Shown piece after piece: positions 6,485-30,570 of a stretch of DNA of 31,919 nucleotides. This DNA is from a virus. Its lineage: Duplodnaviria > Caudoviricetes. The stretch's first letter is position 1, and the number at the start of each line of letters is the position of its first letter. The stretch covers positions 1 through 31,919 of the IMG/VR virus record IMGVR_UViG_3300033067_000395; one strand, 5' to 3'. The position numbers and the translations under genes were made by a program. The notes below the pieces were generated by a model. That model was not told the origin of the DNA, did not search any database, and saw only the letters and a program-made list of their open reading frames with translations.

Positions 6485-6823
6485 TTTTCTTTTGGTTTAA
6501 ATATTCTTTGTATGCTTTTAAAAAGTTTTCCTTTTGATCAGTACTAACTTCTTTTTTTGTATTGTTTCCTAAGCTCATAAACCTATCTATTGTTTTAGGT
6601 AACTTTTTAGGATCCTGGTGCGGTGCTATAAATGCACTCCAAGCTATTTGTCGGACCTTTTCCCATTCTCTCAACTCCATTCTCTTATACGCAAAAAGGC
6701 GAATTTGGAACTCTGCGAAAGTCATATCATAAACATCACTTAACCGCAAAATTCCAAGTTCGCCACAAGCAAAGGCAATAACATCTGCCTTAAAATCTAT
6801 TTTTTTGGATTCACTTTTTTTTT
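6477..6823 (-). CDS. Tail assembly chaperone, T segment (reached by -1 frameshift from 6797..7129)
   Basis: The -1 frame is open from the A9 run at 6815-6823 (KKSESKKIDFKADVIAFACGELGILRLSDVYDMTFAEF...) to the stop at 6477; lambda G/GT arrangement. Confidence 0.75.
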
Positions 6824-7129
6824 GCTATCGTCAACCGGAACGTCCTTATTCATCGAGTCGTTAAAAGCTTTGTGAAATTCATTCCAAAAGCTCCCTCCAA
6901 TTCCTCCATTTTCGTCAATCCAATCATTTACATCATACATTGTAAAATCTATTTCCTTAGAGTTTCTTTTATAAGAGTAAGCCAATGAATAATACATCAT
7001 TTTAGGAATTAAAACAGCGTCGGCCTGTGAGCCTAATTCGTCAAGTCTTAAACCTGTTCCGTCTAACAATTCATTTAAAAAACCTATTCCAAAATGGAAC
7101 TCTTTGTCTAATATAATTACTTTATGCAT
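6797..7129 (-). CDS. Tail assembly chaperone (G-like)
   Basis: Lies between the major tail and tape measure genes; ends in slippery A-runs (SKKKVNPKK). Confidence 0.75.
   Translation of the reverse strand: MHKVIILDKEFHFGIGFLNELLDGTGLRLDELGSQADAVLIPKMMYYSLAYSYKRNSKEIDFTMYDVNDWIDENGGIGGSFWNEFHKAFNDSMNKDVPVDDSKKKVNPKK
6800..6823 (-). other. Programmed -1 ribosomal frameshift site(s)
   Basis: AGC AAA AAA AAA GTG AAT CCA AAA AAA TAG contains two in-frame A-AAA-AAA heptamers. Confidence 0.7.
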
Positions 7130-7154
7130 GATTTGATTAATTGGTTAATGATTT

Positions 7155-7595
7155 TTAAGCTTCTGGATCAGTTGTTACAACTAAGCCGTCTCCGTTTAAA
7201 GTTACTGAAAAAGTAGCCAAGTCATCTCCAGACCCCATATCCAAAGATAAGTCTGAGATTAAAGCACTTCCGTAATAAACTGCTCCAGTAACTCCAGTTA
7301 CTAATTTCCAAGTGATTAAAGCTTTTGCAAGTTGCAAATCGAATAAATAATCGTGAGAAGCTTTTGTGTCGTCTCCTCCAACAGAAGTCGTATCGATATA
7401 CTCTCCCTCTGCGTCTAAAGTGTAGCTGTAAATTCCAGCTTGTACTTTAGTTACTCCTGGATCGCATTTTGTGTTTGATTCAATAACAGAAACTGCTGTT
7501 GATAAACTGTTTGAAGTTAAACAAGCTACTGGTCTGTAAGCTGCTCCGTCGTGTACGTAAAGTATTCCAACTTCTCCTTTAATTGGTGTTGCCAT
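7155..7595 (-). CDS. Major tail (tube) protein
   Basis: Follows the tail terminator; 146-aa beta-rich sequence with IESNTKCD and C-terminal ATFSVTLNGDG typical of siphovirus tube proteins. Confidence 0.85.
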   Translation of the reverse strand: MATPIKGEVGILYVHDGAAYRPVACLTSNSLSTAVSVIESNTKCDPGVTKVQAGIYSYTLDAEGEYIDTTSVGGDDTKASHDYLFDLQLAKALITWKLVTGVTGAVYYGSALISDLSLDMGSGDDLATFSVTLNGDGLVVTTDPEA

Positions 7596-13543: not shown

Positions 13544-13551
13544 CAAAGATA
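13544..13551 (-). promoter_or_regulatory. -7 promoter element (TATCTTTG), 4 nt before portal ATG
   Basis: Minus strand reads TATCTTTG-ACGT-ATG. Confidence 0.55.
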
Positions 13552-15269: not shown

Positions 15270-15572
15270 TTATCTTTTGTTTATTGTATTGTATTTTTTC
15301 AAACCGTCGTTTTTATCTATTAATTGATAAATTCCAAATTTAACCGGTCTGCCATGTTTGTTTGTTGTTTCTTTGAAGTTGCATTTTATCTCAATTTCGT
15401 GATCCAATCTCAAACGTGAAATAATTGCTGTAACATTTAAGCATCCTGTCGTTTCCATTAGTCCGTTTCTTGAAGCGGTTACGTTGTTTAATAGCTCGAA
15501 AAGTATTTCGGCACTTTGATTTGTTGGTTTGTCTAAATTTAACCTGTTTCTTGTTTTAAAAAAGTACATCAT
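15270..15572 (-). CDS. Winged helix-turn-helix DNA-binding protein
   Basis: Q...IL..L...G..N.TAIISRLR....I and G......Y.L pattern of HTH_39-like phage proteins. Confidence 0.55.
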   Translation of the reverse strand: MMYFFKTRNRLNLDKPTNQSAEILFELLNNVTASRNGLMETTGCLNVTAIISRLRLDHEIEIKCNFKETTNKHGRPVKFGIYQLIDKNDGLKKYNTINKR

Positions 15573-15595
15573 AATTTTTTTGATTTTAAGTTAGT

Positions 15596-15631
15596 AAAAA
15601 TGGAGGCATTTAAAGTAAATAACCTCCATTT
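15596..15631 (-). terminator. Terminator-like hairpin at the early/late boundary
   Basis: AAATGGAGG...CCTCCATTT stem running into a T-tract. Confidence 0.6.
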
Positions 15632-15660
15632 CCCCATTGTTAACCAAATCAAAATCAATA

Positions 15661-15668
15661 CAAATGTA
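15661..15668 (-). promoter_or_regulatory. -7 promoter element (TACATTTG)
   Basis: Consensus match in the intergenic region upstream of the hairpin. Confidence 0.5.
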
Positions 15669-15705
15669 CTATTTTTTTTGACTTGGATTTGATAAATGTT
15701 GATTT

Positions 15706-15840
15706 TTATATTATTTCTTTTAATCCATTAAGTTTAAATACAAATTGACCGCATTTAAATTTTATCAATCCGTATCCGTCTTGAATCTTAATTATCTCTC
15801 CAATGTTTTTATTAACTTTTACTTTGTCTCCGATTTTCAT
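15706..15840 (-). CDS. Small hypothetical protein (44 aa, KOW/SH3-like start)
   Basis: Hand translation MKIGDKVKVNKNIGEIIKIQDGYGLIKFKCGQFVFKLNGLKEII; AAAATCAAC leader. Confidence 0.6.
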   Translation of the reverse strand: MKIGDKVKVNKNIGEIIKIQDGYGLIKFKCGQFVFKLNGLKEII

Positions 15841-15893: not shown

Positions 15894-16112
15894 TTAGTTA
15901 AATGTTTTTACAATTGCTATTTTTCCAATCACTTCAAAAACTACATATTTAAAAATACTTTCTTGTTCTTTTTGAGTTGCTTTAAAAAACTCAGTTTTAA
16001 ATTCTTGGTTATCATTTAAAAAATTATTAAATGATTTTAATAATACTTTTTGGTTTGAAAATAATTCGTTTTGAGTTAATTCTAAATTTGTTAAAAAAGT
16101 TTGAGTTGACAT
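15894..16112 (-). CDS. Hypothetical early protein
   Basis: First ORF after the strong promoter at 16150-16180. Confidence 0.65.
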   Translation of the reverse strand: MSTQTFLTNLELTQNELFSNQKVLLKSFNNFLNDNQEFKTEFFKATQKEQESIFKYVVFEVIGKIAIVKTFN

Positions 16113-16132
16113 ATTGATTTGATTTTGATTTG

Positions 16133-16182
16133 TTAATTAATTTCTTGTACAAATTTAATTAATATTTTTTAATTACCAAATA
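16133..16182 (-). promoter_or_regulatory. Strong Bacteroidota sigma promoter, repeat copy 1
   Basis: TTTG (16180-16177) - 19 nt - TAAATTTG (16157-16150); 48/50 identical to 17849-17898. Confidence 0.8.
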
Positions 16183-16197
16183 AAAATGATTTTTTTT

Positions 16198-16416
16198 TTA
16201 TTTTTTTTCTAAATCAATTATATCTTTAATGTTTGCAGCTTCTTTTTTTCTGTTAATTAAGTCAACAACTTCTATAACTTTTTTTAAAATATCTGGGTGC
16301 AACTCTATGTTTCGCATACGAAGTCCTACATCAATAGCCATTTGTCTATCTTTTAAAAAATTAAATTTATATTTTGTTTCACATTCAAAACTTGGCATTC
16401 CAGTATTATTTGTCAT
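16198..16416 (-). CDS. Hypothetical protein
   Basis: ATGA-coupled to the upstream ORF. Confidence 0.6.
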   Translation of the reverse strand: MTNNTGMPSFECETKYKFNFLKDRQMAIDVGLRMRNIELHPDILKKVIEVVDLINRKKEAANIKDIIDLEKK

Positions 16417-17061: not shown

Positions 17062-17823
17062 TTATTTGTTTTTAAATTGTTCAAACCATTCCGTTATATC
17101 ATTTGGATTATCAACTGACATACTAAACAATATATCTAATACTTCTTCCTCACTATACATTCTTTCTTGTTGCCATCTAGCACCAGCGATAAAAGCTGGT
17201 CTTAAACGATTAATGTACTTTGAATAATATTTTTCAGCAGCTTCTTCAAGTGTTTCTTGTTTAGGTTTCCCACCAAAATAAGCAGAAGCTAAATCATTAA
17301 ATTCTTTTGTTCCTAATTGTGGTATTTCTTGTTTAGGTTTTTCACTTGGAATGATTATTTTGTAATTTAATCTTTCATTGTCGTAGCAAGTTTCTACAAT
17401 ATCTCCTAAAGGTGTTATGTATTCTTTCTTAACCTCAACCTCCTCACAACTTGGATTCTTCACGAACCATTCAAGGAACTCATCATCAATAGCTTGTACA
17501 CCATCTTTGATTAAGTCTTGGTCTGTTGTTAGGATGATTTCAGAATATTCGCTTTTACAAATATCCATAGTTGAACCACCACTCAATTGTCTTGAAACAA
17601 TTACATTACCCAATAATTCAGTTTTACACAAAACTCCATTGATTAAAGCGTATTCATTAGGTTTAATTTCTTCATCAGAAGTGATATGGATGTTTTGGGG
17701 TTTATAACCAGCTGACGATATAAACCAATCCATAGCCATAGTACTATTACGATCTTTATACGATGTACCATTATAATATAACCTACTCGATTTGTCTGTT
17801 GGTAATACGTGTATGTTTTTCAT
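17062..17823 (-). CDS. Hypothetical modular early protein (probable start MKNIHVLPT)
   Basis: The track's TTG start at 17868 lies inside the promoter; ATG 17823 follows an (AAAATC)n leader. Contains KPKQE twice, KQETLEEAAE, MYSEEEV and EQFKNK. Confidence 0.7.
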   Translation of the reverse strand: MKNIHVLPTDKSSRLYYNGTSYKDRNSTMAMDWFISSAGYKPQNIHITSDEEIKPNEYALINGVLCKTELLGNVIVSRQLSGGSTMDICKSEYSEIILTTDQDLIKDGVQAIDDEFLEWFVKNPSCEEVEVKKEYITPLGDIVETCYDNERLNYKIIIPSEKPKQEIPQLGTKEFNDLASAYFGGKPKQETLEEAAEKYYSKYINRLRPAFIAGARWQQERMYSEEEVLDILFSMSVDNPNDITEWFEQFKNK

Positions 17824-17848
17824 GATTTTGATTTTTGATTTTGATTGA

Positions 17849-17898
17849 TTAATTAATTTCTTTGACAAATTTAATTAATATTTTTTAATTACCAAATA
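17849..17898 (-). promoter_or_regulatory. Strong Bacteroidota sigma promoter, repeat copy 2
   Basis: TTTG (17896-17893) - 19 nt - TAAATTTG (17873-17866). Confidence 0.8.
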
Positions 17899-17922
17899 TA
17901 AATTAACTTTTTTTTATTTTTT

Positions 17923-18312
17923 TTATTCATCCTTGTAAAATTGTCCGTCAATCATTACTCCGGTACGCTTTGAAATTACATTGTATGCACTTTGCAAACA
18001 ATCCTCAAGCTTCAATCCTTGCATTTCTGCCTGGATAATAATAGTCACTAATATATCGCCCAAAGCGTCAATAATCTCCTCTTTGTTGTTTTCATAAATT
18101 GCTGCTGACAATTCGGTAACCTCTTCAAATGTTTTTTCACATTGTGCGTCTGGAGTTCCGTTTTTTAATATTCCTTTTTGTTCTGCCCAGCTTATTACTA
18201 AGGCTTCGAGTTCATTGTATTTCATTTTTCTTTGTGTTATTTCTAATTTAAATCTTGGATCGTAATCATAAGGTACAGTTCCGACTATCATTGTATTTTT
18301 ATCTAATTTCAT
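17923..18312 (-). CDS. MazG-like nucleotide pyrophosphohydrolase
   Basis: K..EE..EL and I.DALGD.LV motifs, AYN.I..R.G....G.F.K tail; true start may be the internal MKYNELE. Confidence 0.85.
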   Translation of the reverse strand: MKLDKNTMIVGTVPYDYDPRFKLEITQRKMKYNELEALVISWAEQKGILKNGTPDAQCEKTFEEVTELSAAIYENNKEEIIDALGDILVTIIIQAEMQGLKLEDCLQSAYNVISKRTGVMIDGQFYKDE

Positions 18313-19166: not shown

Positions 19167-19262
19167 AAAATAAAAAGCAACGAATCAAAAGGTGGTAGTC
19201 TTTATCATCGTTGCAATTTTAAAAAATTTTTATTTTGGCTACCACTCCGATACGCAAATATA
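19167..19262 (-). ncRNA. Putative structured 5' leader (pseudoknot) with its own -7 promoter
   Basis: TATATTTG at 19262-19255; GUGGUAG is complementary to loop CUACCAC of the hairpin GCAACGA/UCGUUGC. Confidence 0.6.
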
Positions 19263-19283
19263 TAAAAAAAATAAATATAAATT

Positions 19284-22168: not shown

Positions 22169-22295
22169 TGTAAAATTATTTTATTAAAACATAAACGGTT
22201 ATAAATCCAAACGCTTCTCACTTCGTTTTTCATTATAACCGTTGTTTAATATCTTTAGTTTGGTAATGTGAGAAGCCAACCACGAGCCAAATGTA
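22169..22295 (-). ncRNA. Putative structured 5' leader (pseudoknot) with its own -7 promoter
   Basis: TACATTTG at 22295-22288; GCUUCUCAC is complementary to loop GUGAGAAGC of the hairpin AACGGUUAUAA/UUAUAACCGUU. Confidence 0.65.
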
Positions 22296-22326
22296 AAAAT
22301 TTTATTTTAATTAAAAAAACTTTTAC

Positions 22327-24175: not shown

Positions 24176-24814
24176 TTAAAAAGGTAAATCGTCTTGAGGC
24201 TCTGAACTAACTACCTCAGCATCATAGACCGGAGTCTCGTTTGCGACAGTAGTTGCGTGAATATACTCAAAACTTGTAACCATTTTTTGGCGTAAAAACT
24301 CTGGTATCTTATTAAATTTTTCTTGGTCAAAATTTTCGTAAGTCCAAACATAACTCGGATTAATTTGTGCCGGACATTCTAAACCTTTTGGAAGTTTTGA
24401 AACGCTTCCGATTTCTGCGTATGTTTTGGTACCGTCTTTAGATTTTTTATGTGTAATATTTAACATGCAAGGCGCTCCTATAAGTTTCTCTATATCGAAA
24501 CTTTTAGCCTCTTCATCTGTAAAGTCTTGACCTCTCCAGTTTTTTAAGAAACTTCTCAAAGTTGCCTTTTCGTGTAATGATAAAGTAAACTCCTTAGAAA
24601 TTACATGAGGTTGCTCTCCGTTCTCTTCTTTAAATACTTTTAACTCAGTTGGAAGCTCAAAAGTGATTCTAACTTTGTTCATTGTTTTAATTTCTCCTTG
24701 AAAGTTTTCGTCAATAGTTCCGATGTGAATCATTGAGTAACATCTCGCTGGGTAACTTCCGGCTTCGATTGGTTGAATTGTTGAGCCTCCTGTGTTTGTT
24801 GCTAAAATTGCCAT
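24176..24814 (-). CDS. Single-stranded DNA-binding protein (phage type)
   Basis: G.YPARC, L.G.PC.LNI.H and acidic C-terminus DDLPF. Confidence 0.7.
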   Translation of the reverse strand: MAILATNTGGSTIQPIEAGSYPARCYSMIHIGTIDENFQGEIKTMNKVRITFELPTELKVFKEENGEQPHVISKEFTLSLHEKATLRSFLKNWRGQDFTDEEAKSFDIEKLIGAPCMLNITHKKSKDGTKTYAEIGSVSKLPKGLECPAQINPSYVWTYENFDQEKFNKIPEFLRQKMVTSFEYIHATTVANETPVYDAEVVSSEPQDDLPF

Positions 24815-24833
24815 TTGATTTTAATTTAATTGG

Positions 24834-25277
24834 TTAATATGTAATTGATAAACTTGATTTTCTGTTTGTTGTGCTTACTTTTGGTATTTCAATACCCTCT
24901 GAGTCGTAAATTGTATTATCTGATTTTAAAGCTACTTTTAGTAATTCTTCTCTGTCTTTTAATTGCTTTTGCAAATCCGAATAAATTGGATCCTCTGAAT
25001 AGTTTAAGCTTTCGCCTCCATTTCTGAAAGTACCCTTAATTCCAAAAGCTTCAAAATTCTCTTGTCCTAAGCTTTCTTTTAATTCAGCTTCAATAATTGA
25101 TAAAGCCTCTTTAAGTCTTAAAGCTTGAGCATAAACCTCAACTTTATTAACTTCTCCGGCATCCAATAAATCGGCTACAAATTTCTTACTGGTAATTTGG
25201 ATTTCTTTTTTTGATGGAAGGAAATTAGTAGTTTGTAATTCCTGCTCTCGCATCAATTCGAATAATTGTTTTGACAT
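24834..25277 (-). CDS. Hypothetical recombination-module protein
   Basis: Coiled-coil ORF directly upstream of SSB, with its own promoter. Confidence 0.55.
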   Translation of the reverse strand: MSKQLFELMREQELQTTNFLPSKKEIQITSKKFVADLLDAGEVNKVEVYAQALRLKEALSIIEAELKESLGQENFEAFGIKGTFRNGGESLNYSEDPIYSDLQKQLKDREELLKVALKSDNTIYDSEGIEIPKVSTTNRKSSLSITY

Positions 25278-25302
25278 GATTTTTGATTTTGATTTTGATA
25301 AA

Positions 25303-25330
25303 CAAATTTAAAAAATATTTTTTAATTAAA
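25303..25330 (-). promoter_or_regulatory. Promoter related to the repeated early promoter
   Basis: TAAATTTG at 25310-25303 with shared spacer TAATTAAAAAATAT; lacks the -33 TTTG. Confidence 0.55.
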
Positions 25331-25345
25331 AAAATAAAAAGGTAA

Positions 25346-26215
25346 TTATTTTTTAATAAAACTAAAAATATGTTCTATTATTGGTAATGTCCAACCATCA
25401 CCTAAAAGACTTGCAGCGTGATTTCTTGTAAGTATATCGCAATAATCATCAGGAAAACCTTGAAGTCTACAAAGCTCTATTTTATTTAAAATCCTCACAT
25501 TTTGATTAGGTTTAAATTCAGGATTGTCAAATACTAAATTAATCATTCCAAGTTCAGTATATCTTTTATATAATTTATCTTTGTTTACTAATTGTCTTTC
25601 TTCGCTTTCTAATATAGCTCTTGCTTTTTTTCTATCAGTATACCCTGAAGTTAAAACGTCTTGAAATAATTTTCCTTTGTCTTTAGGTTGTGGTATATCT
25701 GTAATTAAATCACCAAACATACCATCTTCTTTTGTTCTTATATTACTCCAATAATATCTATCTCTTGAAGCAGCAACAACTAATTCAGAATTAATACGAA
25801 CAGGATAAACACCTAATGCTATACTCATAATTCCAATATCTAATTTATTAGCACTTCCTACATTTTCTTGAAAAAATAAAACTTTTGAATTTAAAGATTT
25901 TATGTGTTCTAAAATTTCAATAAAAGTAAAAAACAAACTCGATTTTTTTCCATTTATTCCAGCACGTTTCCCAGCTGCTGACAAATCCTGGCAAGGTGAT
26001 CCGCTTAAAACCAAATCAATACTTTTCCAATCAATATCCCATTCTCTCCATTTTGTAACGTCTCCAACTTGTATTGTATCTGGAAAGTGATGTTGAGTTA
26101 ATTCAATAGCATAAGGCTTTATCTCACTAGAATAGTATTTATTAACTTTTATGCCTACATTTTCCAAAGCTTGACGTCCTGTATTCATTCCGTTAAATAG
26201 TGATAATACATTCAT
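25346..26215 (-). CDS. DNA (cytosine-5) methyltransferase
   Basis: Motif I SLFNG, GDV, catalytic GSPCQDLS, ENV, R.R.YW, E..RLQGFP and LGDGW. Confidence 0.9.
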   Translation of the reverse strand: MNVLSLFNGMNTGRQALENVGIKVNKYYSSEIKPYAIELTQHHFPDTIQVGDVTKWREWDIDWKSIDLVLSGSPCQDLSAAGKRAGINGKKSSLFFTFIEILEHIKSLNSKVLFFQENVGSANKLDIGIMSIALGVYPVRINSELVVAASRDRYYWSNIRTKEDGMFGDLITDIPQPKDKGKLFQDVLTSGYTDRKKARAILESEERQLVNKDKLYKRYTELGMINLVFDNPEFKPNQNVRILNKIELCRLQGFPDDYCDILTRNHAASLLGDGWTLPIIEHIFSFIKK

Positions 26216-26403: not shown

Positions 26404-26593
26404 TTGCTAAAATTTCAGTTATTGCCTCCTTTTCCTGGATGATAAGAATCTCAAATATTTGTCGTTCGTGAATTGTTAACTCTCCCAAGGTTCTGCCGTT
26501 TAAAGTAACTCTTCCATTTACTAAAACTAATTTAATTTCGTGCGACAATCTCTCTCCTTGCACCATTGGCTCAGTTCCGATAATTTTTTCCAT
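26396..26593 (-). CDS. Hypothetical protein
   Basis: Co-oriented; (AAAATC)3 leader. Confidence 0.6.
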   Translation of the reverse strand: MEKIIGTEPMVQGERLSHEIKLVLVNGRVTLNGRTLGELTIHERQIFEILIIQEKEAITEILANE

Positions 26594-26594
26594 T

Positions 26595-26774
26595 TTATTT
26601 TGATTTTGATTTTGATTTTATTGGTTCGTCATTTAAATAAGGTTTTGTTATTTCAGCTATAAAAAGCTTTATTTGGCTTTGTATTGGCTTAGGCAGTAAA
26701 TCATTGTATTTAAATGTTTCAATACCTCTTTTGTACTTTGGCTTTCTTCCTGCTCCTCTTTCGTTTTGTATCAT
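26595..26774 (-). CDS. Small putative DNA-binding protein (59 aa)
   Basis: Hand translation MIQNERGAGRKPKYKRGIETFKYNDLLPKPIQSQIKLFIAEITKPYLNDEPIKSKSKSK; GAGRKP basic motif. Confidence 0.6.
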   Translation of the reverse strand: MIQNERGAGRKPKYKRGIETFKYNDLLPKPIQSQIKLFIAEITKPYLNDEPIKSKSKSK

Positions 26775-27733: not shown

Positions 27734-27822
27734 GATCTAAAAATGATTTGAAATAAAACATACATTGCCATTAAATAAGCGAAATTTTGTTGATTGATTG
27801 ATTTTGATAAAAAGTTTTTCAT
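27730..27822 (-). CDS. Small membrane peptide (30 aa), first gene of the early operon
   Basis: MKNFLSKSINQQNFAYLMAMYVLFQIIFRS follows the promoter and an AAAATCAAAC leader. Confidence 0.55.
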   Translation of the reverse strand: MKNFLSKSINQQNFAYLMAMYVLFQIIFRS

Positions 27823-27843
27823 TGTGTTTGATTTTGGTTATTA

Positions 27844-27891
27844 AATTAATTTCTTGGACAAATTTAATTTAAATTTTTTAATTACCAAATA
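27844..27891 (-). promoter_or_regulatory. Strong Bacteroidota sigma promoter, repeat copy 3
   Basis: TTTG (27889-27886) - 19 nt - TAAATTTG (27866-27859); similar to copies 1 and 2. Confidence 0.8.
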
Positions 27892-27911
27892 AAAAGATAA
27901 AAAAATTTAAT

Positions 27912-27941
27912 AAAAAAAAGCCACTCAGTTAGAATGGCTTT
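27912..27941 (-). terminator. Intrinsic terminator ending the late operon
   Basis: AAAGCCATTC...GAGTGGCTTTTTTTT hairpin and U-tract. Confidence 0.8.
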
Positions 27942-30136: not shown

Positions 30137-30570
30137 TACTTTGTGATTTCGTCTAAGTCGCCCTTTATCTCCTTAGCTCTATTAAATGATTTTTTTAATA
30201 GTTGCCAAATATCAACCTTAAAAGTTTCCTCAATATTTTCTTTTATTGATACAAGCTCAACAAAGATTAAAAGAATGGCACATATTTTTGTAAACATAAA
30301 ATCAAACCCAAAAGCGGATTTGATAAACTCATTTAAAACATAATTGTCAATTAAATATAAAAACACAATACAAATTTCATACAAAGCCATTTTAGAAATT
30401 ATGTTGGATAATTTTCTACTTCTTATCGATTTCCAGCCGTTTAATTTAATGCTCTTAAATATTCCAGTAAAAGTATCTAAAACAATAGCCGATCCGACAG
30501 CAATTAAAAGTCCGTATATTGGAACAAATAATAAAATTAGACTTGTAAAAATGTAGTTTATGTATTTCAT
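30136..30570 (-). CDS. Holin (phage holin 4-like)
   Basis: Several TM segments, D..TG..K and E..SI.EN motifs; upstream of the endolysin. Confidence 0.85.
   Translation of the reverse strand: MKYINYIFTSLILLFVPIYGLLIAVGSAIVLDTFTGIFKSIKLNGWKSIRSRKLSNIISKMALYEICIVFLYLIDNYVLNEFIKSAFGFDFMFTKICAILLIFVELVSIKENIEETFKVDIWQLLKKSFNRAKEIKGDLDEITK

Follow-up and report, generated by a model that had tools for sequence, protein, structure and literature searches.

The short intergenic unit described here is probably the gene of a trans-acting small RNA that is directed against the leaders of other phage genes and has a predicted self-masking arm. The window analysed is the whole virus record of 31,919 bases, and its minus strand holds essentially all genes. 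By PHROGs assignment, the terminase, head and tail genes lie below 15262, and from about 15700 upwards come replication and recombination genes along with small unknown ones. The capsid protein shares 70% identity with its counterpart in Flavobacterium phage 11b. The PHROGs hits listed for the 59 proteins of the window included neither an integrase nor a CI-like repressor, in agreement with the first-pass annotation, which had noticed no obvious repressor. Since a 44-codon gene overlooked in that annotation occupies 15840-15706, the intergenic gap holding the unit shrinks to 15573-15705, between this gene and a 100-aa gene. The elements in and around the gap are listed below.

15706..15840, minus strand: 44-codon gene, directly upstream of the unit (stop-free frame)
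15676..15686, minus strand: masking arm upstream of the promoter, complementary to the seed (inverted repeats I3 and I21; pairing predicted)
15672..15679, minus strand: A8 tract, centred near -18 of the promoter (sequence; six A columns invariant in the alignment)
15661..15668, minus strand: Bacteroidota -7 promoter element TAnnTTTG (sequence; putative promoter activity)
15639..15656, minus strand: predicted 5' single-stranded seed, 18 nt, U/G-rich, short allele (pairing test, conservation)
15596..15632, minus strand: intrinsic-terminator-like hairpin with U run (folding z -4.5, covariation)
15581..15594, minus strand: leader of the 100-aa gene, with predicted secondary cis pairing with the seed in read-through RNA (accessibility)
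15270..15572, minus strand: 100-aa probable winged-helix protein gene, ahead of the terminase genes (structure model)

A conserved non-coding unit between early and late genes

The element TAnnTTTG (15668-15661), the U-rich segment (15660-15640) and the hairpin (about 15632-15596) lie where the first-pass annotation had put them, and the same holds for the downstream complement (15594-15581) and for the distal arms (15678-15664 and 15569-15558, both approximate). In F. johnsoniae promoters, as described in PMC6847099, the -7 box stands 4-5 nt ahead of the start site, and an AT-rich motif near -18 is more evident than a -33 box. Since the start site follows the box at this distance, we place +1 at about 15656; the A8 tract at 15679-15672 agrees with the AT-rich -18 patch. 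The U-rich 5' segment proposed earlier for the RNA is thus kept, minus the first four bases quoted for it, which are probably not transcribed. With the hairpin as the predicted 3' end of this RNA and also of early transcripts, the predicted length of the RNA is 61 nt, close to the 60 nt or so first suggested. Three minus-strand late genes at 13551, 8047 and 2369 (portal, tail-terminator and second major-tail genes) have a -7 box, 4 nt and then the ATG, a spacing that agrees with the box-to-+1 distance; late mRNAs from these sites would be leaderless and therefore immune to an anti-leader RNA. Farther upstream, in the region 22169-22326, a second TACATTTG box at 22295 is followed by a possible structured 130-nt leader before the replication initiator gene.

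At the sequence level, the unit has its own promoter and terminator and contains no open reading frame; in the long alleles described below, a frame of 36-44 codons begins upstream of the predicted +1. Folding of the 128-nt stretch is much more stable than that of its shuffles (z -6.0, 0/200); this is also true of the hairpin by itself (z -4.5), and the seed has a predicted unpaired probability of 0.80 in the short RNA. The box followed by TTTGGTTWA has a single match in the genome, and the coding-strand 10-mer that is antisense to the most leaders (five) is the one at 15658, which bears out the earlier remark that no other inverted intergenic copy was noticed. An Rfam 15 scan of the whole window gave no match at E 1 or below. 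The generic terminator scan overlooked this hairpin, and its sigma-70 promoter scan does not apply here. Contigs from four of 24 RNA-library runs, all 24 of which consist of contigs, cover the unit; they come without ends or strand, and records of up to 9-43 kb suggest DNA carry-over.

The unit is real, conserved and non-coding. It is present in 8/8 relatives found via the neighbouring 100-aa protein, behind different upstream genes, and in all eight the -7 box is identical. Box and seed are 97-100% identical at aligned positions, compared with 56-69% upstream and with 52-58% at the third codon positions of the 100-aa gene (long-allele genomes). Covariation in relatives, a check named in the first-pass annotation, is also seen: among 12 aligned copies of the hairpin, 99.5% of the cells are paired and three pairs show two-sided change, with 14 such cells as against 0 in slid controls.

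Pattern scans returned true units in 12 of 12 cases in viral contigs, whereas in metagenomes seven of the 22 hits were the unit and the other 15 were chance matches in unrelated DNA. When the viral pattern was relaxed, 33 loci were obtained, and the 27 new ones listed comprised six known carriers, five target-type leaders on the other strand and 16 unrelated sequences. Distant blastn searches of the unit against 50,697 phage records gave chance hits only, none covering 80%. Covariance model R1, run on 81 + 74 other related loci and five whole records, found no copy outside the carrier lineage. Since neither these 155 other related loci nor the whole records held a copy, the unit is confined to one lineage.

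Predicted pairing of the seed with tagged leaders

Pairing between the seed and the leader was computed for 59 starts, with 1000 shuffled seeds as the control. The eight leaders that the RNA is predicted to target are as follows.

16110..16142, minus strand: leader of a 72-aa gene, the first after an early promoter cassette (start 16112, -14.9 kcal/mol)
17821..17853, minus strand: leader of a 253-aa gene at an early promoter cassette (start 17823, -14.7 kcal/mol)
24812..24844, minus strand: leader of a 212-aa gene with a weak DUF669 lead only (start 24814, -14.3 kcal/mol)
25275..25307, minus strand: leader of a 147-aa gene at an early promoter cassette (start 25277, -13.8 kcal/mol)
26591..26623, minus strand: leader of a 65-aa gene (start 26593, -13.8 kcal/mol)
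start 15840, minus strand: leader of the 44-codon gene (-13.5 kcal/mol)
7127..7159, minus strand: leader of a 110-aa tail-region gene, the sole match in the late region (start 7129, -12.2 kcal/mol)
27820..27852, minus strand: leader of a 30-codon ORF at the first early promoter cassette (start 27822, -11.6 kcal/mol)

The leaders named in the first-pass annotation are indeed the best partners of the seed among the 59 starts (-14.9 to -11.6 kcal/mol), with the exception of 30771, which pairs at only -10.6 kcal/mol; start 27822 is also a top partner, although its ORF has just 30 codons. The mean of the top eight is -13.6 as against -8.3 ± 0.9 for the shuffled seeds, none of which (0/1000) reaches it, so that the pairing is clearly better than in composition-matched controls. 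The duplexes themselves are modest (-12 to -15 kcal/mol) and A-U-rich. When the genome was scanned without regard to position, leaders, which make up 6.7% of it, held six of the top 10 sites and seven of the top 25, the other 18 being outside leaders. The co-fold value of -16.6 obtained for 15572 was rejected as an artefact, its target window overlapping the hairpin.

Taken as a class, early leaders pair no better with the seed than late leaders do (Mann-Whitney p = 0.14; 6/34 early and 1/25 late leaders at -12 or below), and for this reason we limit the claim to the tagged subset of leaders. The earlier proposal that early mRNAs are targeted may thus hold for this subset, whereas no enrichment is seen across all early leaders and one predicted target belongs to the tail region. 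Each of the four copies of a repeated early promoter cassette is followed first by one of the predicted targets. These promoter-plus-leader cassettes (16118-16215, 17834-17931, 25271-25368 and 27827-27924) are 62-89% identical to the first copy, and their AT palindromes could be operators or recombination points for the exchange of gene cassettes. Atlas searches gave no name for the 147-aa and 212-aa target proteins. The 110-aa tail-region gene is the first gene of a frameshift-like layout, in which a gap at 6750-6796 is followed by a frame lacking an ATG start; this is the usual layout for a tail assembly chaperone frameshift.

The match is not a general property of such leaders. At -12 or below we found 7/60 phage leaders, compared with 3/295 leaders in 400 kb of the 4.5-Mb genome of F. 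rivuli, a single species of 39% GC that is not known to be the host. A broad host shut-off, considered as another role for the RNA, was unsupported in F. rivuli (z -0.8 with the short seed and 0.0 with the long seed). Early-side leaders reached the same threshold in 16 of 180 cases in 12 carrier loci, which are kin to each other and of which two are probably the same phage, and in six of 700 cases in 42 related non-carrier loci of similar GC, the starts in the relatives having been called by a simple program made for this analysis. A covariance-model search confirmed that these 42 loci are without the unit. Judged from sequence, the leader tag is therefore not generic and is concentrated in this phage lineage. 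In one long-allele genome (G005/L084), no matching leader was found among 13 upstream genes.

The relatives also provide an allelic comparison. The window has a short seed, which corresponds to two blocks of the long seed joined together, and most relatives carry the long allele with 7 extra nt. For the 52 gene families common to both groups, we compared the preference of each leader for the short or the long seed. All six target families (6/6) shift towards their own allele, with a mean of -3.9 kcal/mol (sign test p = 0.016), whereas the 46 other families average 0.0 (16 negative, 24 positive and 6 unchanged; Mann-Whitney p = 0.0007 vs targets). The largest allele-matched change, -10.9, is in the leader of the 72-aa gene, and the 7129 leader changes by -1.9. 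These counts are not independent, since the alleles represent one evolutionary split, with one or two genomes supplying most of the long-allele leaders, and since the carriers are kin. The match is also asymmetric: the short seed fits the long-allele genome G001 as well as or better than the genome's own seed (z -4.6 vs -4.0 in one test, and -7.7 vs -4.3 in another with 30 shuffles per cell), whereas the window is a poor match for the long seed (z -1.7 to -2.6). Taken together, the conservation of the unit, the specificity of its targets relative to a bacterial genome and non-carrier phages, and the allele-matched changes in six of six families argue for the trans action put forward in the first-pass annotation.

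The upstream arm and the downstream gene

The arm at 15686-15676 is predicted to be a conserved third pairing partner, overlooked in the first-pass annotation and new here. It differs between the alleles in a way that keeps the pairing with the seed: combining the short arm with the long seed gives -7.1, and the long arm with the short seed -12.0, compared with -14.2 and -14.3 for the matched pairs. All 13 of 13 loci have a predicted arm-seed hairpin; against arm shuffles it scores 25/500 or better in 11 of them, L096 and L007 not being significant (38 and 53 of 500). In all 13 loci, the predicted accessibility of the seed falls from 0.45-0.84 in the short RNA to 0.14-0.34 when the upstream sequence is present. 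The arm variants are mostly A-to-G changes opposite U and C-to-U changes opposite G, so that the RNA helix is kept and the DNA palindrome is not; such pairing-keeping changes are transitions, which are the commonest mutations anyway.

These variants bear on whether the unit could be a relic or a DNA element, that is, an inverted leader copy left from a gene start on the opposite strand, or an imperfect promoter palindrome beside an ordinary early terminator. Read on the other strand, the seed does resemble a leader followed by ATG, leaders do occur as repeated cassettes in this genome, and the -7 box sits between arm and seed, which form an inverted repeat. However, the antisense ATG runs into a stop only 1-5 codons later, conservation of the seed exceeds that of coding DNA, and the arm variants pair only as G-U on the coding-strand RNA and are mismatches in DNA. 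We consider such an origin very unlikely.

The arm would prevent early mRNAs from working as antisense RNA. No other terminator-like hairpin was seen in the gaps from the early promoters at 17873 and 16157 to the hairpin of the unit, and because of this the early mRNAs probably end at the unit hairpin and so also carry the seed. As the arm is predicted to fold back on the seed and lock it in such long read-through early RNAs, only the short RNA, which is without the arm, would be active.

Downstream of the hairpin lies the 100-aa gene, which is followed by the genes for the terminase small and large subunits. The winged-helix label given to this gene earlier is plausible, since the best PDB matches of its structure model (pLDDT 75) are winged-helix proteins, although no match reaches E 0.001 and a Pfam search gave none; the protein may resemble the Pfam HTH_39 family. 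In read-through RNA from the promoter of the unit itself, the seed may cover the leader of this gene, probably as a dispensable side effect. The predicted accessibility of its start region is 0.32-0.55 with the seed and 0.65-0.90 without it in 11/11 adjacent loci, and the upstream arm restores it in 9/11 of these, the window not being among them.

The unit could on this basis be read as a cis RNA switch, in which the seed would pair with either the arm or the leader of the 100-aa gene, translation of this gene would depend on how long the transcript is, and the matches to other leaders would reflect a shared leader style. The effects of seed and arm on the start region would be expected from such a switch, as would the allele-dependent shift in the 100-aa gene's leader (-5.1); however, six distant leaders shift with the allele too. 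Moreover, three of the eight relatives (L004, L005 and L008) have an HNH cassette with its own -7 box inserted between the unit and the 100-aa gene, which is thereby some 650 nt away, and the unit has stayed intact in all three, although the cassette may have arrived recently. Only short-allele genomes have the distal helix over the start codon, because the long-allele genes start differently. We therefore judge a cis switch to be quite unlikely as the main role of the unit. Of the cis model in the first-pass annotation, the short seed-leader pairing is retained as plausible, being predicted in 11/11 adjacent loci, yet it is dispensable given the intact units separated by HNH cassettes; the distal helix is not conserved. 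That model had been likened to the T4 e and soc genes, in which a hairpin in the long read-through RNA hides the ribosome-binding site and the short RNA has no such hairpin. A structure confined to the long RNA is common to both cases; here, by prediction, what it hides is a small-RNA seed, and a helix over the start codon is not conserved.

The inserted cassettes are related to HNH endonuclease genes with their own -7 box at 19167-19283 of the window and at about 2330-2463 of L004, and in L004, L005 and L008 they stand right after the unit. The leaders of these HNH genes contain two short complementary stretches, one near the 5' end and the other close to the start codon, and the resulting fold is likely to limit translation.

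No conserved separate -7 box was found for the 100-aa or terminase genes, and for this reason the box of the unit may double as their leaky promoter. An internal TAAATTTG box at 15342 in the 100-aa gene was rejected as a conserved promoter, being lost in 3/8 relatives. The unit might then be a late promoter with an attenuator, similar to lambda pR'/tR', in which the box drives the winged-helix and terminase genes, antitermination or leakage is needed to get past the hairpin, and the short RNA is a by-product devoid of any role. A promoter and a terminator directly at the head of the packaging genes, which have no other conserved box, would suit such a device, for which the StxS architecture is a precedent (PMC7547250). 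The attenuator nevertheless leaves the invariant seed, the lineage-specific tag match and the allele-matched leader changes unexplained. It also fits poorly with the HNH promoter inserted downstream in 3/8 relatives, with the terminase gene that has its own -7 box after the terminator in three analogous units (L031, L056 and L153), and with the lack of any antiterminator family, Q-like ones included, among the PHROGs assignments of the 59 proteins, many small genes being without assignment. Attenuation as the explanation of the unit is thus unlikely, and it can coexist with a small RNA, as it does for StxS.

Analogous units, known systems and proposed action

Units consisting of a -7 box, an anti-start segment and a hairpin are found upstream of the terminase genes in several more distant phages. 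They were seen in L153 (998), L155 (3724), L159 (8464), L163, L164 (9424), L202 (673), L056 (598), L031 (about 6420) and L191 (8872); many begin antisense to a start codon. In the cultured phage 11b (L104), an unannotated -7 box, anti-start segment and terminator hairpin lie at about 30325-30400, at the late-to-early boundary. Among eight hand-picked analogous units, five have anti-AUG bases at or next to the predicted +1, and none has a significant arm; phage 11b may need no arm because a terminator-like hairpin precedes its promoter, which is a single case. At 30 shuffles per cell, the 11b and L153 seeds showed no clear preference among several genomes, so that own-genome matching is seen in the present lineage only. 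Sequences that look tRNA-like by eye occur in L152, L155, L164 and L195; they lie in the gap ahead of the gene for the terminase small subunit and no more than 700 nt upstream of the large-subunit gene.

The Bacteroides small RNAs FopS and GibS offer a precedent for the mechanism within the phylum (PMC11697453, PMC7366714). According to its paper, FopS has been deposited in Rfam, regulates host polysaccharide operons and has one noted phage copy (PMC11697453). Neither RNA has a sequence or model match here (Rfam 15, 0 at E 1 or below), and the present unit differs in being single copy and phage-encoded, in targeting the tagged genes of its own phage and in having the upstream masking arm, the last two by prediction. 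Among phage RNAs, the nearest parallels are StxS, c4 of P1/P7 and sar of P22. The last two are likewise small phage RNAs (68-77 nt) that repress phage translation by pairing, and the c4 variants underlying P1/P7 heteroimmunity recall the two alleles described here (PMC12197685). However, c4 and sar act on one antirepressor mRNA in temperate phages (PMC12197685), whereas about eight separate leaders are predicted targets here, in a genome with no integrase or CI-like repressor found by PHROGs. Rfam gave no match to C4 RNA, and no antirepressor family was present among the listed PHROGs hits. StxS/lambda 6S is likewise a short RNA lying between pR' and tR' at the head of the late genes and able to act in trans, but it is processed, bound by Hfq, acts on rpoS and stx1 and needs Q antitermination (PMC7547250); the seed studied here is predicted to target early phage leaders, and no Q-like family was found. 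We found no publication on such an RNA in Flavobacterium phages in a full-text search, which mostly left subscription journals outside. The main text of a review on phage RNAs does not mention Flavobacterium or Bacteroides, and its supplementary table has 38 uncharacterised RNAs (PMC12197685).

For the small RNA that we favour, the following sequence of events can be proposed. Host RNA polymerase would start at about 15656 and stop at the hairpin, producing the 61-nt RNA. The unpaired seed at its 5' end would bind immediately ahead of the start codons in some eight phage genes and block their translation. The seed would cover approximately -1 to -25, an A-rich window which in Flavobacterium serves the ribosome instead of a Shine-Dalgarno sequence. 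Since four of the targets are the first genes after early promoters, one RNA would damp the early operons as it accumulates. More tentatively, and with somewhat less than an even chance of being right as a whole, the picture may be extended to a phage with no recognisable repressor that shuts off or caps its early operons with one tag-reading RNA and keeps the seed locked by the arm in early mRNAs; seed, arm and tags would drift jointly into alleles, and units of this plan with other seeds would be spread among Flavobacterium phages, 11b included.

If the proposed action is correct, a small phage without a recognisable repressor would control many scattered early genes with one RNA, through lineage-specific tags placed in leaders devoid of a Shine-Dalgarno sequence. 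The predicted self-masking arm would elegantly solve the problem of a small-RNA gene that shares its terminator with the mRNAs it represses, and allelic drift of seed, arm and tags could lead to allele-specific exclusion of related phages. The alleles are ready-made matched and mismatched reporter pairs for F. johnsoniae, and the cultured phage 11b has an analogous unit, which makes the proposal directly testable. For work in Bacteroidota, an RNA made of a 5' seed and a terminator would also serve as a compact means of knocking down genes by silencing chosen leaders.
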